The notes under the pieces were generated by a model, which worked only from the letters and a program-made list of their open reading frames with translations, had not been told where the DNA came from and ran no database searches. The translations under genes were made by a program, and so were the position numbers. DNA of 14,148 nt from Promethearchaeota archaeon (GTDB taxonomy: Archaea; Asgardarchaeota; Lokiarchaeia; Sigyniarchaeales; SOKP01): positions 1 to 14,148 of the forward strand of contig JAEOTP010000046.1 in NCBI GenBank assembly GCA_016839765.1. The letters run 5' to 3'. Below, piece after piece: positions 1 through 14,148 of the stretch (position 1 is its first letter; every line of letters begins with the position of its first letter).

Positions 1-131
1 GAATCCTTTAAATCTTGAAATATGGGATTGAGTTCTAAGTTCAATAGTGAAATTTTTCCCGATAAAACTTCTTTTTTTACATTTTCGATTTTTTGATTTA
101 TTTCTTTGGAATAATCTTTAAATTCAATCAT
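1..131 (-). CDS. N-terminal part of a probable kleisin/ScpA-like SMC partner (runs off the window edge; not in the ORF track)
   Basis: ATG at 131-129 overlaps the SMC stop (ATGA coupling). The frame is open to the edge: MIEFKDYSKEINQKIENVKKEVLSGKISLLNLELNPIFQDLKD. 'VLSGKISLLNLEL' loosely resembles the ScpA N-terminal 'LV..G.IDPWDIDI' segment. The CDS is well supported; the product call is weaker. Confidence 0.6.
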   Translation of the reverse strand, partial: MIEFKDYSKEINQKIENVKKEVLSGKISLLNLELNPIFQDLKD

Positions 132-3100
132 TTATTTCTTCTTTTTATTATTTTTGGATTAAATATAGTAGAAACTTCTTTCTTTCCAACCCTAGCTACG
201 CCTATTAGTTTGTCTGCTAAAAGAAACAAACTGCTTGAGGATTTTGGTAAGAACATAAGTAGCTGTATGGGATTCTGTTCGAGAGTCGCTTTTATCATTT
301 GATGAGAAGCCTCTGCATTTTTATCATCCAAAAACATACCAGCCTCATCAAACATACATAATGGTGATGACTTGATTTCTTGCAAAGATAGAATAAGACA
401 AATGGAAATCATAGAAATTTGTCCCCCACTAAGCGCCTTACAAGATTTTAATTGCTCTTTTGTAGTTGCAGCTTTGATATCTATCCCTAATTCTTCAAAA
501 TTACCAATTAAACTAAGCGAACAATAAGATTTAATATTAGCAGATTTGAATTTTTGGTTAATTCTTAACTCTAAATCATTTAATGTTGATTTAAACTTTT
601 GGTAATAAGTTTCCTCTAATTTACTTTCAGTCTTAATGGCAGCATTTATATCTTTTTGCAAACTGTCTTGATTTTTTGTAATTTCTTTCATACTTGATAA
701 GATCTGCTCTTTTTCAATTAAAATTGAGTCATCTACATCTAAATATTTCAATAAATCTTTATCTATTCTCAAAATATCTTCTTTAATCTCATTTATACTA
801 CGCATCTTAAAATCTTTTGATGCGAGTATAGAACCTATCTCAAAATTGATTCTTTCTAAATCACTTTCATTGGCCATTAATTCTTGCTCTAGGGCAGTAT
901 TTTTTAGAATTTCTTGTTCTAATTTTATTTTAACATCTAAATGCTCTTTATCAAGAAGTATTCTTTCTTTCTGGATTTCTGATTTATTTTTTTTTAACTT
1001 AGCGATATCTTCTTCTATTCCGTCAATTTTATCATCAACTAACTCTAATTTCTGGTAAATTTCAAAAGCATCCTTATCTGATTTTTGAAAAATTTGCTTT
1101 TTCAGTTCATAGTCTTGTTTTAAAGTATTTAGTTTCTCTTTATAATCATTTAATTTTTCATTAACTTCATGCCTCTGCTCTATGTTTCCGCTGAGTTTTA
1201 TTTCCCATTTTTTTAAATCTTCATTGTGAATATTTAACTCATCAGGTATTTCTTTAATTCTTTCACTCCATCTAAAAATCTCAGGCTCTCTCTGAGATTC
1301 TAAATATTGAATCTTCTTTTCTATATCAATTATGTTATTTTGAACTATAACAGTATTATTTTCAAGATTATGTATAACTTCATAGAGTCTATTCTTTTTT
1401 GTTGTTAATCTTTGTTTTTGATTAAAATTATATAAAAGATCATTAAATGCTTCTTTCTTCTTATAAAGCTCCTTTTGGATTGTATCAATTTTAGATTGTT
1501 CAACTCTTAATTCAGATATGCGCTCATTTAAGGAATTAATTTCTGACTCTAAATTGCTCAATTGTTCTTTTAGTGTACCCGTACTGAGAAATCCTTTTAA
1601 ACGCTTTTGATAAGGTGTTTCATAAACATATTTATATGAAATTAACTGTTCTCCTTTTAAAGTCACACACTTGCCTTTAAAATTATAATTTTTATAGATT
1701 TGGATACCTGAATGGTAATCTTCAACAACTAAACAGTTTTTTACTTTAGAATAAATAACTTTTTTAATATCAATATCATCATTAACAACTTTTATTAATT
1801 CTGCTAAATAACCTATAACTTTTTCGGCAGAAAATTCCAGTAAAGAGCGAATACTTAGATTTTTAGTTATGTAGATATTACAATAAGCATTGTATTTATT
1901 CTTTAATCGATTCAAAAGACTTAATGTATCCCAATCACTTACTATAAAGCTATATAGCAGCCTTTCTCCTAGAACTGATTCGATTGCATAACTTAGTTTA
2001 TCATCATATTTCAAAAAGTCGATAATTGGTCCCTTTACCTTCTTATCTAATTCCCTTTTTCCTATCTCTTCTTTTAAAATATTAATACTAGGGGGTAAAA
2101 CAACCCTACGTTCTCTTAAGGAAATTTGTAAATTTTTAAATTTGCTTATTAAATTTGTTCGTTCAAATTGTGATTTGTTTAACTCATTCCCTTGTTCAAA
2201 TAAATCTTTAGAATTTTTTCTAAGCTCATTATCAATATGCATGAGTAAATCTGTTGTTGGATTCTCAAGAAACCATTTATTTTTTTCCAATTTATGTTCA
2301 ATATCTTTAAAACTTTGAAAAATCTCATTAATTTCAGAATTTATATCTTTTATTTTATTTTTGTTTTCTTCGATTTTGGTTAAGCATTTTTGTTTTTTAT
2401 GAATCAATTGATTGTACTCTTTTAAAAAATCTTCATTTTGTTTGATCTTTTTTGCTATTATATTCTGTTCTTTTATTAAATCATCTATTTTTAATTTTAG
2501 GGCTTTTTTCTCCTTTTGAATTATGCTAATCTCGTTGTCTAAAGTTTTCTTTTGGCTCTGAACATTTCCTAGTCTCTTTTCTAATGTAATTATCTTTTGA
2601 TTTAAAATATCTAATTCTTTTTTTGCTTGTATTTTCTCTTGTTCCCAGGTCCTAATTTTTTCAATTAATTTTTTTTTTCTATAAATTAATTTCCCTAACT
2701 CTTTTGAAAAATCATTGATCTTTATTTCAATATTATTTATTTTCGAATCCTTTTCTAGAAGTATCTTTTCATAATCTTCTGTATCTTTTTTAATCTTAGC
2801 AATTACTATATGAAGGTTTTTAAATTTTTCTTTTAAAGCTAGTATTCTTTCTTCTAATTCATTCTTATTGGCATATAACAATTCATCTTCATGAACTTTC
2901 TTTAGCTCAAGTAAGTTATGTTTTTGCTTTAATCGTTTAAGTTTAGGTTGTAGAAGATTTAAACTGATATTTAAGGTATTTCTTCTACTTACTAATGATT
3001 GAAAATCTCGATTTAAATGATAAATCTTTCCCTTTTGTTGTAAAATTTCATCTCTCAATCCTTTTAATCCAATTCCTTCTTCTAAGAAGATACAAAGTTC

Positions 3101-3565
3101 AATTGGTTTTAAATTTTTAATGGCGTCGATCTTTCCTTGACTCACAAAAGCAAATTGATTATCTGGATTAATTTTTAGATCTGAAATTAGCTTTTGAATC
3201 TCAATGGCATGCGTTCGCTTGAAACCTTTATTAGTTCCTCTTTCAATCTCAAAAAAAGGTGATTGTCCTCTTATCACTAGTCTTCTTATTTTAATTCTAT
3301 CATTATTATTTTGAATATGAAGCTCAACCATTGCATGATCTTGCCCATTTCTGATAAAATCAGACCATTTTTTATATCGTTCATCTCTTTCATTACTTCC
3401 TAACGCAAATTTGATTGCCTGAAATATTGAGGTTTTTCCTGACCAATTAGGGCCAATAATTATGATGAATTTGGCATTATCAAAGTCAACCTCGTCTCTT
3501 TGAAAACTTAAGAAATTTTCAAGAATTACTTTCTTAAGAGATATATTATTAGTCTCAGTAGTGAT
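128..3565 (-). CDS. smc: SMC-family ATPase (chromosome segregation protein, SMC5/6-like motifs), about 1145 aa
   Basis: The frame stays open upstream of the ORF-track ATG (3331) to a TGA at 3586-3584 and adds ITTETNNISLKKVILENFLSFQRDEVDFDNAKFIIIIGPNWSGKTSIFQAIKFALG (Walker A). Also present: Q-loop FVSQGKID, two long coiled coils, hinge (GPIIDFL...AIESVLG...VTLKGE), signature LSGGQ and Walker B/D-loop LCMFDEAGMFLD. Start placed at ATC 3565 (or 3568) behind a strong RBS. Confidence 0.93.
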   Translation of the reverse strand: MTTETNNISLKKVILENFLSFQRDEVDFDNAKFIIIIGPNWSGKTSIFQAIKFALGSNERDERYKKWSDFIRNGQDHAMVELHIQNNNDRIKIRRLVIRGQSPFFEIERGTNKGFKRTHAIEIQKLISDLKINPDNQFAFVSQGKIDAIKNLKPIELCIFLEEGIGLKGLRDEILQQKGKIYHLNRDFQSLVSRRNTLNISLNLLQPKLKRLKQKHNLLELKKVHEDELLYANKNELEERILALKEKFKNLHIVIAKIKKDTEDYEKILLEKDSKINNIEIKINDFSKELGKLIYRKKKLIEKIRTWEQEKIQAKKELDILNQKIITLEKRLGNVQSQKKTLDNEISIIQKEKKALKLKIDDLIKEQNIIAKKIKQNEDFLKEYNQLIHKKQKCLTKIEENKNKIKDINSEINEIFQSFKDIEHKLEKNKWFLENPTTDLLMHIDNELRKNSKDLFEQGNELNKSQFERTNLISKFKNLQISLRERRVVLPPSINILKEEIGKRELDKKVKGPIIDFLKYDDKLSYAIESVLGERLLYSFIVSDWDTLSLLNRLKNKYNAYCNIYITKNLSIRSLLEFSAEKVIGYLAELIKVVNDDIDIKKVIYSKVKNCLVVEDYHSGIQIYKNYNFKGKCVTLKGEQLISYKYVYETPYQKRLKGFLSTGTLKEQLSNLESEINSLNERISELRVEQSKIDTIQKELYKKKEAFNDLLYNFNQKQRLTTKKNRLYEVIHNLENNTVIVQNNIIDIEKKIQYLESQREPEIFRWSERIKEIPDELNIHNEDLKKWEIKLSGNIEQRHEVNEKLNDYKEKLNTLKQDYELKKQIFQKSDKDAFEIYQKLELVDDKIDGIEEDIAKLKKNKSEIQKERILLDKEHLDVKIKLEQEILKNTALEQELMANESDLERINFEIGSILASKDFKMRSINEIKEDILRIDKDLLKYLDVDDSILIEKEQILSSMKEITKNQDSLQKDINAAIKTESKLEETYYQKFKSTLNDLELRINQKFKSANIKSYCSLSLIGNFEELGIDIKAATTKEQLKSCKALSGGQISMISICLILSLQEIKSSPLCMFDEAGMFLDDKNAEASHQMIKATLEQNPIQLLMFLPKSSSSLFLLADKLIGVARVGKKEVSTIFNPKIIKRRNK

Positions 3566-3569
3566 GATT

Positions 3570-3581
3570 TCACCCCCTCCT
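3570..3581 (-). promoter_or_regulatory. Shine-Dalgarno sequence for smc
   Basis: Minus strand reads AGGAGGGGGTGA immediately before A-ATC-ATC-ACT. Confidence 0.75.
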
Positions 3582-3586
3582 TTTCA

Positions 3587-4846
3587 TTATTTACCAAAAG
3601 CTTGTTTGATATGATCCATCCTTTTTTTCGCTTTTTCTAAATTGATTTGTGCTCTACTGGGAGAATCATTTAAAATAAATGGATATTTTGCTAACAGCTT
3701 TCTTTCATTTTCCTCAAGAATTTCCTTTTTATTTAATTTATCCAGAATGATAACAAGTTCTGTATAATTCTTTGAAGCCGCATTTTCATATAATTGATTC
3801 AGCATAAATTCGGAAATAGGTTGATTTTGGATGTGTTCTTGTATAGATTGAAGTTCATTAAAATTAATCTTTTTATAAGACTGCGTTTTTTGAATTTGGT
3901 TTATTTTGGAAGCAAACTTATAATTTTCATTATATAGATCTTGAATTTCTTTAGTTTTAGCTAATATAGATGGTATAAATTCACCTGATTCGATTAAATT
4001 AATTATAACAGCAGTTATTTCATTCGAAGTTTCATTCAATTCAGAATTAAGAAAATGCTTGAAAACCGCTGTTTTTAATAAATGTTTTATTTCTTGAATT
4101 TCCCAATTCTGCGTATATTTAACAATTTGATTAATATCAAATACTATTTTTTGATTCTTTTCAGAAAAATTTTTCAGTACTATTTCCCTTTCACTATTAC
4201 TTAATAAAGGGATTTTAATGAAAAGATCAAAAATCTGAAAGATATCTTTTGAGTTTTTTTCTATTTCATTAAGATTTTTATTTATCCATATTAAAATGAT
4301 TCCATTTTCTAGGAAAGTAAATTCATAATTTTTAAGGGTATTAATAAAGAGTTTCAATAAATTCTTTTCATTAAGTAAAGTTTCTGTTAATTCTACTTGA
4401 TCAATTAAAAACAATTTGTTTGGTTTATTTTTTTCATTAACTTCATCGTAACCGTTTTTATTTTCATTTAGATTATTGACTTTACAAGTCAAATCCTCTA
4501 TAATTTGCTTTAGAATAATATTAAAATTTTTAAAGAATTCTTTAGGTTCTTTTGAAATTTCTAAATAGTTTAATTCTACAAAGTCTAAATAATAATTCTT
4601 TGAAATTAATTTTAAGAAATCTAAGATATCTGTACCAGAATCAATATTGATTAAAAGTAAGCCTTTAGGTATAAGGTATTGTTGAATTGTTGAGTATTCA
4701 TTGTTTGTTAACATTCTCTTTATATAGTTAATTATATCGTTATATTTATCTCTATAAAATATGTCTTCTCTCTTGATATCAATTTCCGATGGCGAAATTA
4801 CTCGGTAATATTGATTATATCTTAAATTTGTTTCTGGTTCCTTCAT
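3587..4846 (-). CDS. Degenerate (probably inactive) CDC48/p97-like AAA+ domain protein with C-terminal helical extension
   Basis: Follows the classic AAA layout: IPKGLLLINIDSGTDI (eroded Walker A), LFLIDQ (Walker B with E to Q), IILIWINKNLNEIE (SRH position), FDLFIKIPLLSNSEREIVLK and DINQIVKYTQNWEIQEIKHLLKTAV (lid). Confidence 0.7.
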   Translation of the reverse strand: MKEPETNLRYNQYYRVISPSEIDIKREDIFYRDKYNDIINYIKRMLTNNEYSTIQQYLIPKGLLLINIDSGTDILDFLKLISKNYYLDFVELNYLEISKEPKEFFKNFNIILKQIIEDLTCKVNNLNENKNGYDEVNEKNKPNKLFLIDQVELTETLLNEKNLLKLFINTLKNYEFTFLENGIILIWINKNLNEIEKNSKDIFQIFDLFIKIPLLSNSEREIVLKNFSEKNQKIVFDINQIVKYTQNWEIQEIKHLLKTAVFKHFLNSELNETSNEITAVIINLIESGEFIPSILAKTKEIQDLYNENYKFASKINQIQKTQSYKKINFNELQSIQEHIQNQPISEFMLNQLYENAASKNYTELVIILDKLNKKEILEENERKLLAKYPFILNDSPSRAQINLEKAKKRMDHIKQAFGK

Positions 4847-4906
4847 TGGGAAATCAAATCCTATCTTTTATCCTATTTTTAAACATTATCTACATGGGAA
4901 TTTATA

Positions 4907-4925
4907 CATATATATTTAGCGGTAG
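4907..4925 (-). promoter_or_regulatory. Putative BRE/TATA promoter of the AAA-smc-kleisin operon
   Basis: Minus strand CTACCGCTAAATATATATG about 60 nt upstream of the ATG at 4846. Confidence 0.45.
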
Positions 4926-5118
4926 CCACAGTTTTGAATAATTAAACAACCGACAAAAATCGTAAAGTTTATAAAATCATAATTTTAGGTAAACCTGTTT
5001 AATTAAATGCATCAGAAATTTATATGTAATTCTTATTTCAAGTACCTATTTAAATAAGTCTAATCTTCTAATACTCTTAAGAATTCTTTAACTCGTATGC
5101 TGATATTTAAAGCAATAA

Positions 5119-5128
5119 TAAAAAAAAT
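5119..5128 (-). terminator. Oligo-T terminator candidate after the DUF2769 gene
   Basis: A-run on the plus strand (T-run on minus) just downstream of the stop at 5141. Confidence 0.4.
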
Positions 5129-5140
5129 TAGTTAAGTATT

Positions 5141-5401
5141 TTACTTCCTACCCTCGATTCCATGCATACAAAACCATCCGCCTTCTAGATCAAATTTTGA
5201 AAAAAGGTCACACTTAAAACAATTACAACCCTTATCTTCTACTTGATCCATTGGCTTTGTAGTTTTTCCTCTGGAACAAAAAAGAGCATGTGGTTCTAAT
5301 TCGTTTAATTTGTTTGGTTTAAAAGTAGGGCAAGGACCACAGAACTTTTTACAGATATCCATATTTTCGGGGGTATTTGGAACTGGTTGAGGCATTTTCA
5401 T
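5141..5401 (-). CDS. DUF2769-like small Cys-rich (metal/Fe-S-binding) protein
   Basis: Pattern VPNTPEN..C...CGPCPTF...LFCSRGK...GCNCFKC...WFC..G with 9 Cys in 86 aa; GGAG RBS upstream. Confidence 0.75.
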   Translation of the reverse strand: MKMPQPVPNTPENMDICKKFCGPCPTFKPNKLNELEPHALFCSRGKTTKPMDQVEDKGCNCFKCDLFSKFDLEGGWFCMHGIEGRK

Positions 5402-5587
5402 CTAACTCCGTTCATACAATAAGTTTTTATATTAATTTTTTCGAAATTCTTTATTAAACAATAATAAAATTTTCGATTACGATATACTAAACTCTACAAA
5501 CTTTTAAAATTAATAGTTATAGATTATAGATTTTGAATGAAGATGATCATCTAGTAAAAAATAAGGTTTTAAAGTATAAAATTGAAA

Positions 5588-5992
5588 TTATGTAATACTA
5601 AATTCATGATTTAGATTATTTAATTGCTCCTTAAATTCATCTTTTATGAGACTATAATAAGTAAACTTCCCCTTTTTCCAACCCCTTATTAAATTAGCTT
5701 TCTCTAATTCTCGTAAATGGTGAGATATCGAAGATTGGGATTTATCTAAGATTGCCTCCAATTCACATACGCAACGATCTTTCTCTTTTAACGCGTTTAT
5801 TATAGTAATTCTTTCTTTATTTCCCAAAGCATTTAAAAAAGTAAAAATTAAATCTAATTTCTCATCCAATCTTAATTGCGTTCCTAATTGTTGTAAATTT
5901 TCAAAATATTTGTCACTATCAAAACACTCATCACAGCTACAAAGCATTTGTTTGATTTCAGTCTTGCGATCTATTTTTATAAAAATCACCAA
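5588..5992 (-). CDS. arsR: ArsR/SmtB-family metalloregulatory repressor
   Basis: ALGNKERITII...DRCVCELEAILDKSQSSISHHLRELEKANLI...KKGKFTYYSL, a winged HTH with the alpha3 CVC As(III) site, plus an extra N-terminal CSCDEC. Divergent from the acr3/arsC operon. The start is uncertain (TTG 5992, GTG 5989 or ATA 5980). Confidence 0.93.
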   Translation of the reverse strand: MVIFIKIDRKTEIKQMLCSCDECFDSDKYFENLQQLGTQLRLDEKLDLIFTFLNALGNKERITIINALKEKDRCVCELEAILDKSQSSISHHLRELEKANLIRGWKKGKFTYYSLIKDEFKEQLNNLNHEFSIT

Positions 5993-6050
5993 TTATTATC
6001 AATAAAAAATCTCTTTATTATTTTAGAAGTTATTAAATTATAAAAATTTT

Positions 6051-6098
6051 ATTCATATCGAATCATTTAGATTCACATCGAAACATTTTTATTTGAAA
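6051..6098. promoter_or_regulatory. Tandem ArsR operator candidates overlapping a BRE/TATA-like element
   Basis: Direct repeat with 20-bp period: ATTCATATCGAATCATTT (6051-6068) and ATTCACATCGAAACATTT (6071-6088). Each copy holds a dyad core ATnnAAnnnnTTnnAT (6057-6072, 6077-6092). It lies between the divergent arsR and the operon. Confidence 0.65.
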
Positions 6099-6141
6099 TA
6101 TTCTATTAATATCTTAAGCTCTAACCATATAGAATTCACAA

Positions 6142-6894
6142 ATGAATAAAATGGAAAACAATAAAAAACTTAAGATTGGATTAATTTCTGACGGTAAGTA
6201 CGGAGATAGAGCATATGAAAATATAAAAAAGAAATTTGAAACTGACTGGATACTCCTCCCAGAGATACCACCAAATATTATGTTAGATGATGAGCTTGGT
6301 TTTGAAATTCCTGAGTGTGACCTTTACATTTCATATATTCGGCATCCAGATATAATGCTAAAATTAGCAGAGCTTCAAAAACCATTGATTTTGGGCATAC
6401 TTCCGGGAATTGGGTTATACTTACAAACCAGAGAAATAAATCCTAAAGTTATTTATGCACCTACAATTTGTTCATTGGAAAATAATACAGGGATTCCTGA
6501 AATTGACCTATTTACTAGTTATTTCGGCCGACCTATTTATCAAGTTAAGATAAATGAGGATAGGGTTATTAATGACATTGAAGTACGTCGTTCTTCACTA
6601 TGTGGGTCTTCTGAAGCTGGAGCGAAATTCCTACTAAATAAAACTTTTAATAAAGAAAATCTTCAATATTTTGCTTTAAGTGTTTGTTATGAATGTCGTG
6701 CACCCCGTTTTGGGCATACTTGTGATAAGGAAGTAGCGGGAATTATTCATTTGGTTTCAATTTTTGAGAGTATATCCACAGAAATTTCAAACAAATTTGA
6801 TAAAAATTTAAAATCCTTTATCAAAGATATTGGAAAGGAATATAAAAGAAGATCTAAAAATTCAGAGTTATTACAAAAAGAGGTAATAATTTAA
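6142..6894 (+). CDS. DUF166-family protein
   Basis: Motifs DGKYGDRA, CDLYISY..HPD, P.ICSL, FGRP, V.RSSLCGSS match the archaeal DUF166 family as I recall it; additional CYEC...C near the C-terminus. Confidence 0.75.
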   Translation: MNKMENNKKLKIGLISDGKYGDRAYENIKKKFETDWILLPEIPPNIMLDDELGFEIPECDLYISYIRHPDIMLKLAELQKPLILGILPGIGLYLQTREINPKVIYAPTICSLENNTGIPEIDLFTSYFGRPIYQVKINEDRVINDIEVRRSSLCGSSEAGAKFLLNKTFNKENLQYFALSVCYECRAPRFGHTCDKEVAGIIHLVSIFESISTEISNKFDKNLKSFIKDIGKEYKRRSKNSELLQKEVII

Positions 6895-6897
6895 ATT

Positions 6898-7977
6898 ATG
6901 CAAGAAAAAGAATTAAATAAAGCTGGAAAGGAAATTATAGATAGTATTGAGGTTAAAGAAGAAAAGGGTAAAAAAATTAGCTTTTTTGAAAAATTTCTTC
7001 CTCTTTGGGTGGCTATATGTATCTTTATAGGAATTTTGTTATCACAAATTTTTCCGGGGATAAGTAAAACAATAGAGTCTTTAAAAATTGGAGAAATTTC
7101 TATACCAATTGGAATTTGTTTATTCCTAATGATGTATCCTGCGATGTTGAATCTACAAGCTTCTGAATTAAAAAAATTGGGTAAGAATCCTAAACCAATC
7201 ATCTTAACACTAGTCTCTAATTGGCTGATTGCGCCTTTTGTAGGTTTAGCGATGATTAGACTCTTTTTACCTGGAAATGAACAATTATCAGTTGCTATTA
7301 TTTTATTGTCAAGTTCACCATGTACTGCAATGGTTCTTGTGTGGGGCTGGATGGCACGAGGTAATCAAGAACAAAATGTAATAAATACCAGTTTAAATAC
7401 AATGACGATCATATTTGGGTATGCTCCTTTAGTCGCATTGTTAACAGGGATTCAAAACATACCAATTGACTGGGTTCTCTTATTAATATCGATATTCATT
7501 TTTATAGGACTTCCTTTAGTATTGGGAATAGTAAGTAAAAGAATATTAATCTCTTCTAAAGGAGAAAATTGGTTTAATAACACTTATCGACCAATCGTAG
7601 GAAAAATTTCGATTATAGCTTTATTAACGACATTAATAGTACTTTTTTCATTGAATGGAGATGTTCTAATTCACAATCCAGATTTACTAGTATTAGTTTC
7701 TATTCCACTTTTAGTAGGATTTCTAATTGTTGTTGGTTATAACATTTTAATTACTAAACTTTTCAAACTGAAATATAAAGAGGCTGTTATAACTGTAATT
7801 ATTGGATCTTCAAGTCACTTTGAAATTGCAATTGCTACTGCTATTGCTATGTATGGAATTGGTTCAGTTGCTGCTTTAGGTACAACTATGGGTTTATTTT
7901 GGGAGGTTCCTGTAATGCTTTCAATAGTATATTTAGGTAAATATCTAAAAAAACGTGGATTTTGGAAATCTGAATAA
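6898..7977 (+). CDS. acr3: Acr3-family arsenite efflux transporter
   Basis: About 10 hydrophobic helices with FFEKFLPLWV, LMMYPAM, NWLIAPF, PCTAMVLVW (essential Cys), SSHFEIAIA and EVPVML; GAGGT RBS upstream. Confidence 0.96.
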   Translation: MQEKELNKAGKEIIDSIEVKEEKGKKISFFEKFLPLWVAICIFIGILLSQIFPGISKTIESLKIGEISIPIGICLFLMMYPAMLNLQASELKKLGKNPKPIILTLVSNWLIAPFVGLAMIRLFLPGNEQLSVAIILLSSSPCTAMVLVWGWMARGNQEQNVINTSLNTMTIIFGYAPLVALLTGIQNIPIDWVLLLISIFIFIGLPLVLGIVSKRILISSKGENWFNNTYRPIVGKISIIALLTTLIVLFSLNGDVLIHNPDLLVLVSIPLLVGFLIVVGYNILITKLFKLKYKEAVITVIIGSSSHFEIAIATAIAMYGIGSVAALGTTMGLFWEVPVMLSIVYLGKYLKKRGFWKSE

Positions 7978-8028
7978 TTTGTAGGTTTTTTTAAATTTTA
8001 TAAATCAATAAATATGAGTGAGAAATAA

Positions 8029-9693
8029 ATGGCTGTCGTCTACATGCGAAAGTTGGAGCAAGAACCAAAAAGTTATGACTCAAATTTTACTACTCTTACA
8101 AAGGGAGTAAATCTCGAAATTCAAGATTGGGTTCTTGATCACATCAATACTTCAGAATCAATTTTAGAAATCGGATGTGGTACCGGTATACTAGCTGCCA
8201 AAATGGCATTAAAAGGGAATGATGTTATTGCTATTGATAAAAATTTTCAAATGATTAATTATGCAATGAAAAATTACCCTCAAAAAGAAAATTTACATTT
8301 ACTATTTCAAATAGGTTCATTTTCTAACCTTCAAGCTGAACATCATTCGAAAGATATATTAGTGAGCACATTCATGTTATCAGAATTACGTCCATTTGAG
8401 CAGCAAATTTTTCTTCGGAATGCATGGAAAGCATTAAAACCAGAAGGACGATTAATTATAGCCGCTGAATTTATCCCTTCGGGATTTTGGAAATTAGTTT
8501 TTAAGATTAAGAGATGGCGGTATAAAAAAAAGCTTAGAAGACTTCGATTAAAAAGTACTTTCCTTTTGAAATGGTTTTTTAATTATCTAGAGCCGATAGG
8601 ATTTAAAATCAATGCTCAAAAAAAATGGAAACATGGCTCTATTCAAGTTATGGAACTAAAAAAGATAAATTACAACCAAACTGAGGAATCTGGTTATTAT
8701 CGTCCTATACCAAAAAAATTTAAGGGACTTCGTTCTCAATTTAGGATTTATCGATGCATTTTTACTGGACAAGTTGATCATGTTCCTATTGAACCAGGCA
8801 TTTACCAAGCTGGCAATCCTGATAAAAATTCTCCGATTATTGTTACAGCCAATTATGAGTATAGCTACATTAAAGTGATGAGAGATTTGAAAGATATTAG
8901 TGCGTGGGTATTATGTGTAGATTCTAATGGAATTAATGTGTGGTGTGCTGCTCGTGGTAATAATTTTGGGAATGCACAACTACTCGAAGCGATAGAAGCG
9001 ACTGGCATTCAAAATTATACAAGTAAAAAAACTTTATTACTCCCCCAACTCTCTGCTGGGGGGGTAGCTATTCCAGATTTACCAATAAATTCAGAAAAAT
9101 TCCCATTTAAGGTAAAATATGGTCCAGTTTGGTCGAAACATATACCAAATTACTTAAAAGATCAACCTTCCAAAAAATCAGAAAAAATGAGGCTTGCCAG
9201 ATTTACAATTTCTCATCGTATCCGCGCTGGAATAACGCATACCACATTTCTATTCCGTAAAATATTCATGTTGCCCATTTTGGCTTTACTAGTGTTATTT
9301 TTAGGCCTATACATCTTTACAGTTTTTGATAAATTATGGTGGATTGGTGAACTGTGTATCTGGATTTTATTTCCTAATATGATTATATTTTTGTTATTTC
9401 CACTTTCAAAATTTACTCAGAAATTTGTAAATAAAGGATTTTTCTTTGGATTTATTAATATAGTCATTTTAGGTGGATTAACGTGGTTAATACATAATTC
9501 AATTTTTTATACTCTGATTAATTTACCTTTTTTCATTTGGATCACATTTTTTTCAACGATGTCTTTTAGTGGTTATACAATGGCAACAAGCCCAAGAAAA
9601 ATTGAAAATGAATATCCCATTTTTAGCAAATTAAATAAAATTTTACTATTGATAAGTTTGGTTTCCTTACCAATTGGAATTATATTTTATTAA
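8029..9693 (+). CDS. hgcA: Fusion protein: N-terminal class I SAM-dependent methyltransferase plus HgcA-like corrinoid-binding domain and C-terminal membrane domain
   Basis: Residues ~1-215: ILEIGCGTG, VIAIDKN, ALKPEGRLII. Residues ~250-400: PGIY..G.P..NSPIIVTANY, GINVWCAARG (cap helix, Cys306, nt 8935-8958), LLLPQLSAGGV, VKYGPV, KMR.ARF. Residues ~405-554: about 5 TM helices with SGYTMATS...E. The symbol indicates homology, not proven Hg methylation. Confidence 0.88.
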   Translation: MAVVYMRKLEQEPKSYDSNFTTLTKGVNLEIQDWVLDHINTSESILEIGCGTGILAAKMALKGNDVIAIDKNFQMINYAMKNYPQKENLHLLFQIGSFSNLQAEHHSKDILVSTFMLSELRPFEQQIFLRNAWKALKPEGRLIIAAEFIPSGFWKLVFKIKRWRYKKKLRRLRLKSTFLLKWFFNYLEPIGFKINAQKKWKHGSIQVMELKKINYNQTEESGYYRPIPKKFKGLRSQFRIYRCIFTGQVDHVPIEPGIYQAGNPDKNSPIIVTANYEYSYIKVMRDLKDISAWVLCVDSNGINVWCAARGNNFGNAQLLEAIEATGIQNYTSKKTLLLPQLSAGGVAIPDLPINSEKFPFKVKYGPVWSKHIPNYLKDQPSKKSEKMRLARFTISHRIRAGITHTTFLFRKIFMLPILALLVLFLGLYIFTVFDKLWWIGELCIWILFPNMIIFLLFPLSKFTQKFVNKGFFFGFINIVILGGLTWLIHNSIFYTLINLPFFIWITFFSTMSFSGYTMATSPRKIENEYPIFSKLNKILLLISLVSLPIGIIFY

Positions 9694-9739
9694 AATAATA
9701 AAAAAAATTAAAAAGTATAAAAAGATAGAGGTTATAAAG

Positions 9740-10045
9740 ATGACAGAAATAGATTTTAAAACACTTAATTTTACCGAAATCGTAAAGAATATACGAATTT
9801 TTATTAATCGAGATGCGTGTAATGGATGTGGATTGTGTAGAGAGATATGTCCTTTTGGATTACCTCAACCTAGCAATAATGGAAAATATGAAATAACAAA
9901 CCCTGATCTCTGCACAGAATGTAGCGCTTGTAAAAGAAATTGTCCGACTCAAGCTATTATTATGCAAGAACAAGCGGGTTGTGGATGTTTGTGGAATGTT
10001 AGGAATAGAGTAAAGAACTCAAATCAATCGTGTAATTGTGGTTAA
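9740..10045 (+). CDS. hgcB: HgcB-like 2x[4Fe-4S] ferredoxin with Cys-rich tail
   Basis: CNGCGLCREICP and CTECSACKRNCP, then AGCGC and a terminal SCNCG; directly downstream of the hgcA-like gene. Start moved from TTG 9674 to ATG 9740, which has a GAGGT RBS at 9728-9732 and avoids overlap. Confidence 0.85.
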   Translation: MTEIDFKTLNFTEIVKNIRIFINRDACNGCGLCREICPFGLPQPSNNGKYEITNPDLCTECSACKRNCPTQAIIMQEQAGCGCLWNVRNRVKNSNQSCNCG

Positions 10046-10063
10046 AATATTTGGTTATTAATC

Positions 10064-10336
10064 ATGGAAGAAAATAACAAATTAAGAGTTGACATTTATG
10101 TTCCATTAGATACATGCTCCTGTGAATGGGATAAGTTTATGAATCGTGTTTTTACTGTTTTAACACCTTATATCAAATATATTACTTATGATACTAAAAA
10201 TCTTAATTCTGAGGAAGCAAGAAACCTAAATTTACATGGAAATACTATAGTTGTTGACAATAAGAAAAAATATACCGCTTCCTATTCATTAAAAACAGAT
10301 TTGCCCAATTTACTTAGAGAAAAAGGTTTGCTTTAA
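10064..10336 (+). CDS. Small thioredoxin-fold-like protein with CxC motif (possible metallochaperone or redox partner)
   Basis: Strand VDIYVP followed by DTCSC, a helix, then EEARNLNLHGNTIVVD resembling the thioredoxin/glutaredoxin C-terminal motif without the cis-Pro. Confidence 0.6.
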   Translation: MEENNKLRVDIYVPLDTCSCEWDKFMNRVFTVLTPYIKYITYDTKNLNSEEARNLNLHGNTIVVDNKKKYTASYSLKTDLPNLLREKGLL

Positions 10337-10366
10337 TCCTATTGATTAAATTAAGGTGGTTAAAAA

Positions 10367-10723
10367 ATTAAAAAAATAGAATTTGAAATTAGTATACCTG
10401 TAAAAGGGCTCCAACAGGGTAAAAAATATACACTTAATGTCGAAGATAATACTGTTTTCATAGAAACATTAGCACTGGTGGATAAAATCGAGATGGCAGA
10501 GACCAAGAACATGATTTTTCCCCTATATGAAGGTTATATTCATAGTTATCTTCAGCTTTTTGTAAATCTAGAAGAAGATTCAATATACGATGATGTTGGG
10601 GTGTATGCATATGCGCCTGATGAGCATGGAATTATGCAAAAGTTTAACCCTATTAGAGAAAATATTGAATTCAACTTATATCCTGATAGTGTGATTCAAT
10701 TACAACCAGATGTAGGATGTTGA
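10367..10723 (+). CDS. Beta-grasp (ubiquitin/MoaD-like) protein ending Gly-Cys; candidate selenoprotein
   Basis: The frame is open upstream of GTG 10478 to TAA 10361-10363. ATT 10367 follows RBS AAGGTGGT (10353-10360) and gives (M)KKIEFEISIPVKGLQQGKKYTLNVEDNTVFIETLALVDK...LYPDSVIQLQPDVGC, which parallels the MoaD/Urm1 'L.DGD.I...P...GG' ending. It ends TGT-TGA-TGA. Confidence 0.65.
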   Translation: MKKIEFEISIPVKGLQQGKKYTLNVEDNTVFIETLALVDKIEMAETKNMIFPLYEGYIHSYLQLFVNLEEDSIYDDVGVYAYAPDEHGIMQKFNPIRENIEFNLYPDSVIQLQPDVGC

Positions 10724-10826
10724 TGAGAAAAGGTGAAAGAAAGATTGGACATTGGAACCCTTAAAACAATAATACGGCAAAAATATGGTAAAAGTAATAA
10801 ATATTTTGCACACTATTTCCAAACTT

Positions 10827-10881
10827 AATTTTTTGGATGATATCTTTCAAGAAATTGTAGTGAAAGGTTGACAAAGGGATT
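10827..10881 (+). other. Eukaryote/Lokiarchaeota-type SECIS-like RNA hairpin
   Basis: Lower stem AATTTTTT (10827-10834) with AAGGGATT (10874-10881; three G-U pairs). Core ATGAT (10837-10841) with TGAC (10869-10872). Upper 8-bp stem ATCTTTCA (10842-10849) with TGAAAGGT (10861-10868). Loop AGAAATTGTAG has unpaired As. Confidence 0.55.
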
Positions 10882-10982
10882 GCCTCCTATATATCATATA
10901 AAAAACCTTAAAATTACTAAAAGACATACTAAAAAAAATTTAGCACATAATTCTCGAAATAATTTAAAAACAAGTGTTATCA

Positions 10983-11414
10983 ATGGAGAAACCAAAAGTA
11001 GTTTTTCTTTGTACTGGAAATTCGGCACGTAGTCAAATGGCAGAAGCATTTCTTAAAAAGCATGCAGGTGAGCATTTTGAAGTATATAGTGCTGGGTTCG
11101 AACCTCAAGGTATACATCCTTTTACTATAAAAGTAATGGAAGAATTAGGTTATGATTTAAAAGATCAATATTCTAAAGAATTAAAGGAATTCTTAGAAAA
11201 AGTTCACTTTGGAATTGTTATAACTGTATGTGAAAAAGCTGAAAAGACCTGCCCAATTATTCCTGGAGTAAGTACTAGGTTATTTTGGTCATTTGAAGAC
11301 CCTGCAGCATTTGAAGGAACAGAACAGGAAAAAATCAATAAATTTCGACAAGTCAGGGACCAAATTCATCAAAAAATTCAAGTATGGTTAAAAGAAAGAG
11401 GAATTTTAAAGTAA
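10983..11414 (+). CDS. arsC: Thioredoxin-coupled arsenate reductase (LMW-PTP fold)
   Basis: FLCTGNSARSQMAE P-loop, YSAG, ITVC......CP redox cysteines and W.FEDP. ATG 10983 is preferred over GTG 10974. Confidence 0.95.
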   Translation: MEKPKVVFLCTGNSARSQMAEAFLKKHAGEHFEVYSAGFEPQGIHPFTIKVMEELGYDLKDQYSKELKEFLEKVHFGIVITVCEKAEKTCPIIPGVSTRLFWSFEDPAAFEGTEQEKINKFRQVRDQIHQKIQVWLKERGILK

Positions 11415-11418
11415 ATCA

Positions 11419-11427
11419 TCTTTTTTT
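11419..11427 (+). terminator. Oligo-T terminator candidate for the ars operon
   Basis: TCTTTTTTT just after the arsC stop. Confidence 0.45.
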
Positions 11428-11526
11428 AAAATTCAAGTTAAAATTAATTTGTTTTAATTTATCTACTCCTTTATTTTAAAATCTGAAACTTAAAAAATAA
11501 TTATTTATTTAAATTTTCAACTAGCC

Positions 11527-12474
11527 ATGGATATTTTCACTCACTTTATAATCGGAATACTTGCCAGTATTTATGGCCTTAAATCTTTACCATTTAGCCT
11601 TGTAATTTATGCCGCCATAATGTCAGTAATTGCTGATTTTGATATATTTCTAGAACCACTACGTTTGATTAAAAAGTCAAATTTTTTATCCCATAAAGGG
11701 TTATCCCATTCATATTTTACTGCTTTGTTATTTTCGTTTTTTACAGCAATATTATTTACCTTTATTACCAATGAAAACTTCTTGATTGCTTGGATTATTG
11801 GATTTCTTTTTTATAGTCTACATGTTACACTGGATTTAATAACAGCATCAAAAATTCCGATATTCTATCCTTTTTCGAAGAAAAGATATCGATTTTTCAT
11901 AGATAGAGCTATCAATTTATTTTTAGCTCTAATCTCTGGACTTGTTGTTTTATCTTATTTTTTAATGTTCTTTTATTTACCAGAATTATTCTTTTCTAAT
12001 TTATATCATTATATTTTTGGATTTTATCTCGCATATTTCTCTTATCGGTTCATTTCTAAAATCTGGATTCAATTCAAATTACCAAAAAATTCTCTTTACA
12101 TCCCCGGTATTCTTCCTTTTGTTTATTTTATTTATGAAAATAGTTCCTTAGGAAACTCCAATTTATTTAAATTTACAAAAAAAATTCAATTTTCAAACAA
12201 AAATTCTCTTCTTTTACAATCTGAATTATCTAAGAGCTCCAATGATATAAAGTTCTATGAAAAGGCTATAAAAATTTCAAAAGATTATGTATTTTTTACT
12301 AAGTGGGAAGCAGTTATTCCAATAGTAGAAAAAGATGATGAATATTACACTATACTTTTAGTATTAACAGAAAGCTATTTTTCAGGGTCAGCCTACGCGC
12401 TCAAAATGGTATTTAATAGAAAATCAGATACAATTGAAAATATATCTGGCGGATTTAACTTGTTTAAATTATAA
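11527..12474 (+). CDS. Membrane-bound metal-dependent hydrolase (YdjM-like)
   Basis: MDIFTH, ADFD, HKGLSHS, SLHVTLD and FYPFS motifs with multiple TM segments. Confidence 0.85.
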   Translation: MDIFTHFIIGILASIYGLKSLPFSLVIYAAIMSVIADFDIFLEPLRLIKKSNFLSHKGLSHSYFTALLFSFFTAILFTFITNENFLIAWIIGFLFYSLHVTLDLITASKIPIFYPFSKKRYRFFIDRAINLFLALISGLVVLSYFLMFFYLPELFFSNLYHYIFGFYLAYFSYRFISKIWIQFKLPKNSLYIPGILPFVYFIYENSSLGNSNLFKFTKKIQFSNKNSLLLQSELSKSSNDIKFYEKAIKISKDYVFFTKWEAVIPIVEKDDEYYTILLVLTESYFSGSAYALKMVFNRKSDTIENISGGFNLFKL

Positions 12475-12672
12475 AACATTGCAGATATCTATTCTTTTTT
12501 ACAGTTAAAAGTTTCACGAGTAAAACTAAAAATAAGTTTCTTCTTTTAAGTTTTCAATGAAAGATTTTCTATTTATAATAAATATTTAAATATATGTTTA
12601 TCTGAAACACTAATTGTCAAATCTAATTTGAATAAAAAATTAAATTCTAAATTATATAGAAGTGATAAAAAT

Positions 12673-14091
12673 ATGGAACGTTCAACAAAAAGAATTCTTG
12701 CAATAGTCCTTGTAATAGCAATTGCAGGTGCTGGAATAGGAATTGGACTCTGGTTTGTTTTCGCGCCACAAGAATCTGTCTTTGAAACTCCTGGAGTTTC
12801 AGGTGTTTCTGATGATCGAATAATTAAAATTGGCTTACTTGGAGGTATAACTGAAATACAAGGAAAAGGAAATTATGAAGGTGCGTGGTTAGCAGCCCGT
12901 AATATCAATCAAGCTGGTGGTGTTGAAGTTAATGGTACAATTTATTATATAGGGCTTGTAACTGAAGATACGGATGAATCAAATCCTGTCCTTGATGTTA
13001 CTAAGGGAAATTCTGCGGCTGAAAAAATAATTGAAGTAGATGGTGCAGAATATATCATCGGTGGATTTAGAACAGAAGCTTTAAAAGCCTATATTGAAGT
13101 TGTTATGGATGCTAAAAAGTTATTTCTTGGAACTGGGGCATCAACAGATTATTTCTGCGGTAATGTTTACGGAGAAGCGTATTCTAGTTACACCAGATAT
13201 AAATATTGGTTTAGGGTTATGCCTATTAATTCAAGTGCATTAGGAGGATCGCAAATCCGTGAAATGGCTTATCTCAAGTCATATTTGACTGCTGTACTTG
13301 GCAAAAATGTTACCGAGGTGGCTATTTTACGAGAAGGTTTAGACTGGACCATTCCAATGGATAATGCACTTCAAACCTACCTTCCCCTATACGGATACAA
13401 TATAGTAGCTGATATTGATTATCCAATTACAGCTACAGCAACGGATTTTGCTACTTACTGGAATCAAATCCAGGCAGCAGGTGCCCAAATCGTAGTTCCA
13501 GTAATTTCTGCTCAAGGTGGACTTTATATGATGTCTCAATATAAAGCTCTCACACCCCAATGTCTTATTGTAGGTATCGATGTCCAATCACAGTTAGATA
13601 CATTTTGGGAAGATACTGGTGGTACCGACGTCATAGTTGGAGATTGTGCATATGAAGTGATAATGCAATCAGTTTATAATACAAGTAAAACAGCCTTAAC
13701 AGTAGCCTTCTGGAATGATTTTTTTGCTACATTTGATCATGAACCACTATACACCGCCGTAGGAGCCTATGACGCTGTAACTTTAATAGCTGATGGTATT
13801 AACGCAACTGGAAGATTTAAGGCTGAAACGCTAATAGGTTGGCTCGAAAGCTTTACAAAAGCTAGTCCGTTGACTGGAACGAGTGTTTCAACAGGTTCAG
13901 TGGCTTGGAATCCATCTCACGATATAGTATCTTCCATAGAAGCGGGTTGGCCATTCGGTTCTACTTTATACTGCCAATGGCAAACAGATGGTACAAAACA
14001 TGTTATTTCATCTGGAAATTTACTTTATCCAGACAGTATAGTAACAGGACCTCTAGCAATCCCTCCTTGGGGTATTAATGACCCCCCCTAA
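12673..14091 (+). CDS. ABC transporter substrate-binding protein, LivJ/LivK-like (type 1 periplasmic binding fold), N-terminal membrane anchor
   Basis: Hydrophobic anchor ILAIVLVIAIAGAGIGIGLWFVF, then IKIGLLG, LAARNINQAGGV, IIGGFRTE, YWFRV and AYDAV. ATG 12673 (after AGTGAT) is preferred over TTG 12628. Confidence 0.9.
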   Translation: MERSTKRILAIVLVIAIAGAGIGIGLWFVFAPQESVFETPGVSGVSDDRIIKIGLLGGITEIQGKGNYEGAWLAARNINQAGGVEVNGTIYYIGLVTEDTDESNPVLDVTKGNSAAEKIIEVDGAEYIIGGFRTEALKAYIEVVMDAKKLFLGTGASTDYFCGNVYGEAYSSYTRYKYWFRVMPINSSALGGSQIREMAYLKSYLTAVLGKNVTEVAILREGLDWTIPMDNALQTYLPLYGYNIVADIDYPITATATDFATYWNQIQAAGAQIVVPVISAQGGLYMMSQYKALTPQCLIVGIDVQSQLDTFWEDTGGTDVIVGDCAYEVIMQSVYNTSKTALTVAFWNDFFATFDHEPLYTAVGAYDAVTLIADGINATGRFKAETLIGWLESFTKASPLTGTSVSTGSVAWNPSHDIVSSIEAGWPFGSTLYCQWQTDGTKHVISSGNLLYPDSIVTGPLAIPPWGINDPP

Positions 14092-14126
14092 AAAAGAAAA
14101 CAACCGTATAATAAAATCAAATCAAA

Positions 14127-14146
14127 TTTTTTTTTTTCTTTTTTTT
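14127..14146 (+). terminator. Long oligo-T terminator
   Basis: Nearly pure T tract about 35 nt after the stop; also complementary to AAAAAAGAAAA at 14090-14100. Confidence 0.6.
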
Positions 14147-14148
14147 CA

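Follow-up and report, generated by a model that had tools for sequence, protein, structure and literature searches.

The main ArsR-controlled arsenic (soft-metalloid) operon of a Loki-type Asgard archaeon encodes, with what we consider an even chance of the whole explanation being right, a corrinoid-dependent system of the HgcAB superfamily that is bound to the membrane and transfers methyl groups to arsenic. The host is Promethearchaeota archaeon GCA_016839765.1 (genome completeness 95.9%), and the window is the whole stretch of DNA analysed, namely the 14,148 nt at positions 1-14,148 of the forward strand of contig JAEOTP010000046.1. Divergently from arsR, the plus strand carries in order the genes for a DUF166 protein, Acr3, a fusion of a CpaM-like methyltransferase (MTase) with an HgcA-like protein, an HgcB-like ferredoxin, a CxC protein, a small selenoprotein and ArsC, separated from DUF166 to arsC by 3, 51, 46, 18, 141 and 145 nt. 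An earlier sequence-only reading had described these genes as co-directional with mostly short gaps and their products as rich in clustered Cys, and both descriptions stand: all genes lie where it placed them, and Cys clusters are present in ArsR (CVC and an N-terminal CSC..C stretch), in the HgcB-like protein (GCGC and CNC) and in the CxC protein (CSC). The genome has a single Acr3 match, making this its only Acr3 operon, and a literature search found no published description of such an operon.

When considered against NCBIfam, the fusion protein (554 aa; 8029..9693, plus strand) remains below the cut-offs of three related families, with 138.8 bits for CpaM (NF043040, cut-off 180), 167.2 for HgcA (NF040863, cut-off 275) and 173.4 for HgcAB-like proteins (NF043039, cut-off 285). 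Its N-terminal part (approximately aa 1-215; 8029..8673, plus strand) is a CpaM-like class I SAM-MTase domain that covers positions 2-215 of the 216 in NF043040 (138.8-141.8 bits) and also shows weak TehB-type matches. The ArsM model (NF008823) gives only 34.6 bits (cut-off 263), and the sole conserved Cys of the domain is located in motif I; since it has no conserved arsenic-binding Cys, this domain is unlikely to act like ArsM. The remaining part (8746..9693, plus strand) comprises an HgcA-like corrinoid-binding domain, with the sub-cut-off matches to NF040863 and NF043039 and a match to PF03599 (56.3 bits), and five transmembrane (TM) helices at approximately aa 404-554 according to hydropathy. 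Its cap helix, NVWCAARG (Cys306), is invariant in 21 aligned sequences, and the domain takes its place in a sister clade holding ferredoxin-fused HgcAB-like proteins. The sub-cut-off scores, the cap helix and the sister-clade placement show that this is not a canonical HgcA, which corrects the sequence-only reading. The HgcB-like 2x[4Fe-4S] ferredoxin (ATG at 9740, end at 10045, plus strand) matches Fer4 families and, with 56.6 bits against a cut-off of 99, NF040864 (HgcB); its GCGC(L)W motif is invariant, its C-terminus (CNCG) is rich in Cys, and its gene adjoins the fusion in 20/20 fetched loci.

Several known systems resemble parts of this module. In common with HgcA and HgcB of P. mercurii ND132 (NF040863/NF040864), it has a corrinoid domain with a Cys cap helix, five C-terminal TM helices and, as its neighbour, a 2x[4Fe-4S] ferredoxin carrying additional Cys, and in some bacteria hgcAB is likewise accompanied by an ArsR-type regulator and ars neighbours. 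It differs in its scores (167 and 57 bits versus cut-offs of 275 and 99), in its cap helix (NVWCA(A/G)GK in canonical HgcA) and clade, in having an N-terminal class I SAM-MTase domain, which is absent from canonical HgcA, and in its Acr3/ArsC operon setting with a Sec-Sec protein. With the HgcAB-like fusions (NF043039) and CpaM (NF043040) it shares the HgcA-like clade and the CpaM-type MTase/corrinoid partnership, separate CpaM-like genes being found elsewhere directly upstream of ferredoxin-fused HgcAB-like genes. Nevertheless, it scores below both cut-offs (173 versus 285 and 139 versus 180), and the corrinoid protein is fused to the MTase, with the ferredoxin as a separate gene, whereas NF043039 proteins have the ferredoxin as fused partner and no ars genes in the two loci with readable flanks. 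The PF03599 fold is shared with CdhE/AcsC, the large subunit of the Wood-Ljungdahl corrinoid iron-sulfur protein, and among solved structures the corrinoid domain comes closest to 9fzy, 2h9a and 4c1n (E 1e-7 to 8e-9); unlike the fusion, however, CdhE/AcsC has neither a TM domain nor a Cys cobalt ligand, and its methyl source is methyl-H4folate/H4MPT. A CdhE-like gene is also present in this genome, at C17:64002. In its chemistry, the module may be likened to the methanogen MtaA/CoM route, in which corrinoid-bound methyl groups reach arsenic and other metalloids under anoxic conditions; there, however, the methylation is an incidental activity of the enzymes of methanogenesis and not the work of a dedicated, ArsR-linked membrane system.

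In canonical HgcAB, SAM, the established methyl donor, methylates Co(I), and the resulting Cys-ligated CH3-Co(III) hands its methyl group to a thiolate-bound metal (PMC11588087). A putative SAM/corrinoid methyl transfer fits both this published mechanism and the domain make-up of the fusion, although the role of the fused MTase domain is uncertain, because canonical HgcAB uses SAM without an extra MTase domain (PMC11588087). The HgcB-like ferredoxin would bring the cobalamin of the HgcA-like domain to the reduced Co(I) state, whereupon the CpaM-like domain would transfer a methyl group from SAM to the cobalt, giving CH3-Co(III) with Cys306 as lower ligand. The acceptor of this methyl group would be a soft metalloid bound to a thiolate or selenolate, the likeliest candidates being As(III) and methylated As(III) species. 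It would be presented by the Cys-rich tail of the HgcB-like protein and perhaps also by the thioredoxin-fold CxC protein and the C-U-U selenoprotein, and the product would leave by diffusion or volatilisation. That the fused domain methylates cobalt from SAM, which substrate is used and what the small proteins do are all inferred; arsenic methylation by the fusion module is plausible, our expectation being about evenly balanced, and the arrangement suggests a second B12-dependent arsenic methylation path.

The setting of the module points to metalloids. The regulator (5588..5992, minus strand) is an ArsR/SmtB protein (NF033788, 76.9 bits, cut-off 55; PF01022, 57.6 bits) whose CVC site, located in alpha-3, is invariant across 16 aligned homologues; against the arsenic explanation, this site together with the N-terminal Cys is also compatible with a CadC-like Cd/Pb/Zn site. 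Within the divergent promoter region (5993-6141), two tandem 20-nt boxes with ATCGA in direct repeat (6051..6090, no strand assigned) adjoin an A/T-rich TATA-like stretch, are kept in six aligned intergenic regions and constitute a candidate ArsR operator. The operon would be induced by arsenite; hgcAB of P. mercurii is ArsR-controlled and arsenic-induced (bioRxiv 10.1101/2022.10.17.512643). Downstream of arsR and on the same minus strand, a gene for a Cys-rich small DUF2769 protein (5141..5401; PF10967, 43.7 bits, cut-off 22.8) is possibly co-transcribed with it, and its homologues adjoin arsR in loci L045 and L048. The first operon gene (6142..6894, plus strand) encodes a DUF166 protein (PF02593, 105.3 bits) that has conserved Cys motifs, weakly matches the family of DfsP (seleno)proteins and has no relative in the PDB; the gene is present in 5-6 of the 20 fetched loci. 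It is followed by the arsenite efflux permease Acr3 (6898..7977, plus strand; TIGR00832, 283.4 bits, cut-off 282.8). At the 3' end, a thioredoxin-coupled (LMWP-type) arsenate reductase ArsC (10974..11414, plus strand; PF01451 (LMWPc), 74.6 bits; TIGR02691, 138.7 bits, cut-off 174.3) has the CX5R loop (CTGNSARS) and a C86/C93 pair. The proposed insertion of the module between acr3 and arsC did not survive comparison, as arsC is a variable 3' member found in 2/20 fetched loci (and in three more close loci), and the conserved core is acr3-fusion-hgcB-CxC-selenoprotein.

Linkage of the module to ArsR and Acr3 extends over many Asgard genera, which gives good grounds for a role in metalloid handling. 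Among the 20 fetched loci, ArsR is adjacent in 14 and Acr3 directly upstream in 11, the latter arrangement covering at least five genera and two families; 29 further close loci comprise 19 with Acr3 upstream, nine with ArsR alone and one with neither. ArsR-fusion-HgcB units persist through rearrangements (L042, L043, L058, L087), and even distant ARG-type fusions (30-37% identity) remain behind an ArsR-like gene in L058 and L087. Part of the within-family synteny nevertheless reflects shared ancestry, since SMC-like and 419-aa neighbours are conserved in family loci as well, and wider-clade relatives outside the Loki family sit in non-ars contexts (including L054, L056 and L057), which counts against the arsenic explanation.

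The relationship to ArsM is less straightforward. None is encoded in the window, as the sequence-only reading had noted, nor in the 95.9%-complete genome (best match 68.9 bits, cut-off 263). Independence from ArsM thus characterises this genome, but not the lineage, because relatives often possess both enzymes: ArsM exceeds the cut-off in 189 of the 400 Asgard genomes searched with the profile, and about 34 genomes of the same family carry it together with the fusion, whereas many other relatives have the fusion alone. In the closest relative (G263), ArsM lies elsewhere in the genome, while in G170 (acr3-ArsM-fusion-hgcB-CxC-selenoprotein) and G145 it directly adjoins the fusion in one operon; such coexistence argues against simple duplicate function. 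ArsM shares the class I SAM-MTase fold, and in two fusion-less genomes it occupies the same slot between acr3 and the CxC/selenoprotein genes (G168, ArsR-acr3 remnant-ArsM-CxC-selenoprotein; G174, acr3-ArsM-selenoprotein), so that the two small proteins accompany either enzyme. Unlike ArsM, the fusion would work via a cobalt-methyl intermediate requiring a ferredoxin.

It is unlikely, although worth weighing, that the module methylates another soft metal(loid), for example Hg(II), Sb(III), Bi, Se or Te, or accepts a broad range of them, and resides in an ars operon since Acr3 and sensors of the ArsR type react to these elements too. The retained HgcAB hallmarks (Cys cap helix, five TM helices, ferredoxin with Cys-rich tail), an ArsR with at least four Cys, as in CadC-like sites, the TehB-type matches and a Sec-Sec protein that would bind not only As but also Hg are all in keeping with this, and the shared operons of G170 and G145 suggest a job not identical to that of ArsM. 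However, the fusion lies outside the canonical Hg-methylating clade and below the HgcA cut-off, the one tested member of its sister clade, the fused HgcAB-like protein of P. furiosus, reportedly showed no Hg methylation (PMC10083202), no mer genes occur in the window, and the fixed partners Acr3, ArsC and ArsM are all arsenic/antimony-specific.

The module might also cooperate with ArsM-type chemistry instead of replacing ArsM, for instance by adding later methyl groups to MAs(III)/DMAs(III) on the way to volatile trimethylarsine in an anoxic, reducing environment, or by re-methylating protein-bound arsenicals, with ArsM-less genomes using methylarsenicals taken up from the environment. The adjacency and coexistence of the two enzymes, as well as their common small partners, agree with this decidedly unlikely scenario, but the fusion occurs without ArsM in this genome and many relatives, and the methylarsenite pump ArsP was not found here. 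Distinctly improbable, too, is a corrinoid/ferredoxin machine unrelated to metalloid methylation, serving, for example, reductive chemistry such as halomethane dehalogenation, a proposed role of HgcAB, or methylating a protein or a component of the membrane, and placed among ars genes out of lineage-specific regulatory convenience. The non-ars contexts of wider-clade relatives, the flavin reductase, glutaredoxin and FTR neighbours of some loci, and a 2026 preprint in which HgcAB dechlorinates CCl4 (10.64898/2026.04.26.720869) would favour it; yet ArsR and/or Acr3 linkage is kept in 28 of the 29 close loci, and in a second family, despite rearrangements, and the fused SAM-MTase domain points to methyl transfer rather than to reduction alone.

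Regarding the small proteins, the CxC protein (90 aa; 10064..10336, plus strand) matches no Pfam or NCBIfam family and is predicted to adopt a thioredoxin fold. Its AF2 model (pLDDT 87.7) has the topology b-a-b-a-b-b-a, in which helix 1 begins with the CxC motif, its best Foldseek matches are thioredoxins and glutaredoxins (E ~4e-3, TM 0.55-0.65), and its atlas features lie near PF13192; it is also found with ArsM in L076. The “beta-grasp” ORF of the sequence-only reading (10478-10723) turned out to be truncated, corresponding to the first 81 codons of a gene for a 116-aa selenoprotein (10478..10828, plus strand) with a conserved G-C-U-U motif, in which TGA-TGA (Sec-Sec) at 10721-10726 precedes TAA at 10826-10828. 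The AF2 model has a pLDDT of 53 and does not confirm the “beta-grasp” fold, and the selenoprotein has no Pfam or NCBIfam match. Sec read-through of the TGA-TGA gene is shown at the sequence level: the reading frame past TGA-TGA is conserved in 12/12 homologues, and the genome encodes tRNA-Sec, SelD and SepSecS. A SECIS-like element follows (10837..10890, plus strand), built from AUGA, a stem of 8 bp, a loop rich in A and (U)GAC, with a second small hairpin behind it. It has no match in Rfam; across 13 aligned copies, all eight stem pairs are kept, two of them with compensatory changes, and conservation extends to the flanking AUGA and GAC. Another SECIS-like element is located behind a different gene at C33:17284.

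The window is the complete 14,148-bp contig C20 of a 3.32-Mb genome (95.9% complete, G+C ~28%), and profile searches recovered at their window positions all the genes named in the sequence-only reading. A divergent ArsR/SmtB regulator (5588-5992, -; 76.9 bits, cut-off 55) precedes a series of plus-strand genes: DUF166 (6142-6894), which has no PDB relative by sequence; Acr3 (6898-7977; TIGR00832, 283.4 bits, cut-off 282.8); a 554-aa fusion of a SAM-methyltransferase (MTase) and an HgcA-like protein (8029-9693); a two-cluster, HgcB-like ferredoxin (from an ATG at 9740 to 10045); a 90-aa protein with a CxC motif (10064-10336); a small gene whose true extent is 10478-10828; and an ArsC of the LMWP/thioredoxin type (10974-11414). 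The intergenic gaps, in operon order, are 3, 51, 46, 18, 141 and 145 nt. The features of an ars operon, namely a CVC-type ArsR, Acr3 and an arsenate reductase with catalytic Cys, are all present: the alpha-3 CVC site of ArsR is invariant among aligned homologues, and ArsC, with 138.7 bits against an equivalog cut-off of 174.3 for TIGR02691, passes Pfam LMWPc and has both the CX5R loop and the C86/C93 pair. Two conserved ATCGA boxes in the divergent promoter region may be the ArsR operator, and a scan for sigma-70 promoters and terminators gave no excess over shuffled controls, as expected for an A/T-rich archaeon. The genome has one Acr3 copy, that of the window, and a genome search found no ArsP; arsM, already noted as lacking in the window by the sequence-only reading, is also absent above cut-off from the rest of the genome (best match to the ArsM model NF008823, 68.9 against 263 bits). 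Therefore, the window holds the main arsenic locus of this organism.

Several neighbours accompany the operon. The gene for an 86-aa Cys-rich DUF2769 protein shares the strand of arsR and lies 186 nt downstream of it (5141-5401, -); its homologues adjoin arsR in two further loci (L045 and L048), and it may belong to the ars regulon. A gene for a 315-aa YdjM-family membrane protein comes next after the operon (11527-12474), as it does in G170, a further genome, and in the majority of the loci of the genus. An SMC-like 1067-aa protein and a 419-aa protein without a Pfam family (128-4846, -) are likewise conserved neighbours in the genus and in G170, and part of the local synteny is therefore due to shared ancestry rather than selection.

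MAGs labelled Promethearchaeota, Lokiarchaeota or another Asgard group supply the nearest homologues of the fusion protein. Residues 1-215 of the fusion match positions 2-215 of the 216 in the CpaM model NF043040 with 138.8-141.8 bits (cut-off 180; second-best MTase of the genome, 75.5 bits), and the association with an HgcA-like corrinoid protein that is asked of CpaM is provided by the fusion itself. Residues ~240-400 form an HgcA/CdhD-type corrinoid domain, and residues 404-554 carry five hydrophobic transmembrane helices. The earlier label of hgcA is sound as regards the Co-ligating Cys and the five helices, both common to HgcA, but not as regards family: the score is below the curated HgcA cut-off (NF040863, 167.2 against 275 bits), and both the cap-helix motif and the clade differ. 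Among 21 aligned family members with identities as low as 30%, the Co-ligating Cys never varies and the cap helix always reads NVWC(A/G)ARG, as opposed to the canonical N(V/I)WCA(A/G)GK, which is NVWCAAGK in the canonical representatives. With the HgcAB-like fusion proteins (NF043039, 173.4 bits, cut-off 285) the protein shares its clade, but here the ferredoxin is a separate gene and the MTase is fused instead. Unlike ArsM, the MTase domain lacks a conserved As(III)-binding Cys; no Cys outside motif I is conserved in the 21 sequences, which makes ArsM-style binding of As(III) by this domain appear unlikely. The ArsM model gives the fusion 34.6 bits against a cut-off of 263, whereas a real ArsM in another locus (L044) reaches 347 bits.

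An exhaustive profile-free search collected 948 relatives; a homologue search from the HgcA-like part by itself had again given the fusions and no named HgcA. In a quick, unrooted LG+G4 tree of 76 representatives, a branch with an SH-aLRT of 100 separates 52 canonical NVWCAAGK sequences from 24 MTase-fused and ferredoxin-fused ones; the window fusion is among the 24, in the MTase-fused NVWCAARG subclade and outside the canonical HgcA clade. This placement agrees with that of Lin et al., in whose analysis Asgard sequences fall in the “fused” subtree (PMC10083202). The ferredoxin-fused relatives have a separate CpaM-like gene immediately upstream, and thus the whole clade has one parts list of MTase, corrinoid protein and ferredoxin, variously joined. 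The HgcB-like ferredoxin of the window scores 56.6 bits with the HgcB model (NF040864, cut-off 99), and its alignment shows conservation of both CX2CX2CX3CP cluster motifs, GCGC(L)W and the C-terminal CxC/CC.

Most genomes of the window's family have a full-length fusion, as do genomes from several further Asgard families. Among 20 loci fetched from 20 genomes with 8-kb flanks, the HgcB-like gene adjoins the fusion in all 20, an ArsR homologue does so in 14, and Acr3 lies directly upstream in 11, a set drawn from at least five genera and two families. The 20 loci include the CxC protein 8 times, the small protein 9 times, DUF166 5-6 times and ArsC only twice. Another 29 close loci with short flanks have Acr3 upstream (19), ArsR alone (9) or neither (1). 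The synteny proposed as a check is conserved, with linkage to ArsR and/or Acr3 kept in 28 of the 29 close loci and across many Asgard genera. The description of a module inserted between acr3 and arsC is not supported, ArsC being a variable member at the 3' end. Some loci are minimal ArsR-fusion-ferredoxin units (L042, L043), and distant NVWCAARG members lie behind an ArsR-like gene (L058, L087). Other members are found in contexts unrelated to arsenic (L054, L056, L057, L085, L086, L088), and the arsenic link is thus a trait of this subclade, not of the whole superfamily. FMN_red genes beside the fusion in L042 and L046 were considered as ArsH and ruled out by NCBIfam.

Two loci depart from the common arrangement. 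In genome G241 (L048:4270-7940), ~3.5 kb lie between acr3 and the fusion, with an 852-aa ORF that has no Pfam family and a 202-aa ORF, both on the opposite strand. Each end of the segment carries a copy of the final ~23 codons of acr3, and this has the look of a mobile-element insertion with target duplication. In genome G166 (L052:10300-14800), the fusion lies beside four proteins with a DGC domain (PF08859), of which one is a GcvH fusion, in a cluster that also includes DUF166, ferredoxin, ArsR and the CxC protein. An organoarsenical operon of P. mercurii has likewise been reported to include a DGC-domain protein (bioRxiv 10.1101/2022.10.17.512643).

Of 400 Asgard genomes, 189 have an ArsM that scores above cut-off; in the window's family, 49 of 134 do. 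ArsM and the fusion do not exclude each other, since ~34 of the 49 ArsM-positive family genomes, counted by hand, carry both. The two meet in one operon: in G170, a bona fide ArsM (347 bits) stands between acr3 and the fusion, and G145 has ArsM-DUF166-fusion-ferredoxin. The fusion is missing from two nearly complete genomes of the genus of G170, their operons being ArsR-acr3 remnant-ArsM-CxC-small protein (G168) and acr3-ArsM-small protein (G174). Therefore, ArsM and the corrinoid module occupy one slot, singly or together, and the CxC and small proteins accompany either alike. This shared slot is the best computational evidence that the module may act in or near arsenic methylation. The proposal of an ArsM-independent route suits the genome of the window, which has no ArsM, but not many fusion-bearing relatives that do; these include the closest one, G263, whose operon is 90% identical and whose ArsM is on a different contig. 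In L030, what looked like a remnant of ArsM ahead of the fusion was a spurious match to a Cys-rich DUF166 stretch.

Purified canonical HgcAB takes a methyl group from SAM onto Co(I), giving a Cys-ligated methyl-Co(III) that methylates thiolate-bound Hg, with HgcB as the electron supply (PMC11588087), and in P. mercurii hgcAB is controlled by ArsR and induced by arsenic (bioRxiv 10.1101/2022.10.17.512643). By analogy, the fused CpaM-like domain would load the cobalt with methyl from SAM, and the methyl would pass to a soft metalloid bound by thiolate or selenolate, most probably As(III) or methylated As(III), presented by the Cys-rich tail of the ferredoxin and perhaps also by the CxC and Sec-Sec proteins; arsenic would presumably be the inducer. 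What the analysis establishes is the set of parts, their motifs and their linkage; the substrate, the induction and the part played by each small protein are inferred. We hold with moderate confidence that the module is a SAM-loaded corrinoid enzyme methylating As(III) or its methylated forms. That the target is another soft element, Hg included, seems unlikely: Hg is the substrate of the canonical enzyme, but the P. furiosus protein, the sole tested member of the fused subtree, showed no mercury methylation (PMC10083202).

Cooperation with ArsM on later methylation steps would fit the operons that hold both enzymes, but not the ArsM-free genome of the window, and it is distinctly improbable. 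Of equally low probability is a function unrelated to methylation of metalloids, such as the reductive dehalogenation proposed for HgcAB in a 2026 preprint (10.64898/2026.04.26.720869); superfamily members outside arsenic contexts would suit it, the ArsR and Acr3 linkage of this subclade would not. Methylation of As(III) or methylated As(III) by the corrinoid module is the reading preferred here.

An association of hgcAB with ars genes and ArsR control are already known in bacteria, as are SAM as the methyl donor, the CpaM and HgcAB-like families (NCBIfam) and the placement of Asgard sequences in the fused clade. We found no published description of MTase-HgcA-like fusions in Asgard ars operons or of their exchange with ArsM. 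The native function of HgcAB is a long-open question, and the arsenic link has so far come from ArsR regulation in one bacterium. The present subfamily combines ars-operon linkage across many Asgard genera, its own SAM-binding domain and a slot swap with ArsM, which together make it a concrete, testable candidate for anoxic, B12-dependent arsenic methylation. Only tentatively do we propose that Asgard archaea possess a second arsenic methylation system unrelated to ArsM, comprising a membrane SAM/cobalamin/ferredoxin enzyme from the sister clade of HgcAB and Sec/Cys-rich substrate carriers. If so, at least this half of the HgcAB superfamily would natively serve to methylate metalloids rather than mercury, and the system could account for sediment arsenic methylation by organisms scoring arsM-negative.

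The CxC protein matches no Pfam or NCBIfam family. Its AF2 model (pLDDT 87.7) has the topology b-a-b-a-b-b-a of a thioredoxin fold, with C18/C20 just before helix 20-39, at the CxxC position of thioredoxins, and Foldseek returns thioredoxins and glutaredoxins with modest scores. An ArsD-like identity was dropped, as ArsD is not among the top Foldseek matches and the fold is a generic thioredoxin one. In L044:10023-10150 and L045:10136-10330, the protein bears an N-terminal Cys-rich extension (SCC...SCCGS) similar to a Cys-rich region at the N-terminus of the ArsM encoded beside it (52% identity over 31 aa, E 6e-4).

The limits first given to the small “beta-grasp” ORF were wrong, as the frame continues for 33 codons past TGA-TGA (10721-10726). 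The frame beyond this site is kept in 12/12 homologues, which are 37-89% identical over the first 81 residues and have GCUU, ADUU or UGUU at the Sec site. Directly 3' of the true stop, within 10478-10890, lies a conserved element of AUGA, an 8-bp stem with two compensatory pairs, an A-rich loop and GAC, and the genome encodes tRNA-Sec, a Sec-containing SelD and SepSecS. The conserved frame, the SECIS-like element and the Sec machinery make 10478-10828 a predicted 116-aa Sec-Sec selenoprotein. An Rfam scan of window 5000-12000 returned no SECIS family and only a chance snoRNA match; the element matches the eukaryote-like SECIS type known from Asgard archaea (PMC13188914, PMC11227280). The protein has no Pfam or NCBIfam family, an Atlas feature search gave no usable match, and its AF2 model (pLDDT 53) is too poor to confirm or refute a beta-grasp fold. 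The Asgard selenoproteome survey relied on homology to known families and lists seven, and no small Sec-Sec protein is among the families named in the text consulted (PMC11227280); the operon thus also yields an apparently uncatalogued predicted selenoprotein.

Similar elements occur elsewhere. At position 17284 of contig C33 of the window's genome, an element built in the same way (AUGA, stem, A-rich loop, stem, UAAC) follows just past the stop of another gene and probably serves as SECIS for a selenoprotein of the hydrogenase or heterodisulfide-reductase type. The ArsM-type operons of G168 (L076:5877-5941, -) and G174 (L077:2657-2720, +) contain a second SECIS-like copy. In L077 this copy lies behind a small ORF that is rich in Cys/Sec and has several TGA codons in frame, which points to one more selenoprotein gene in these ars operons.
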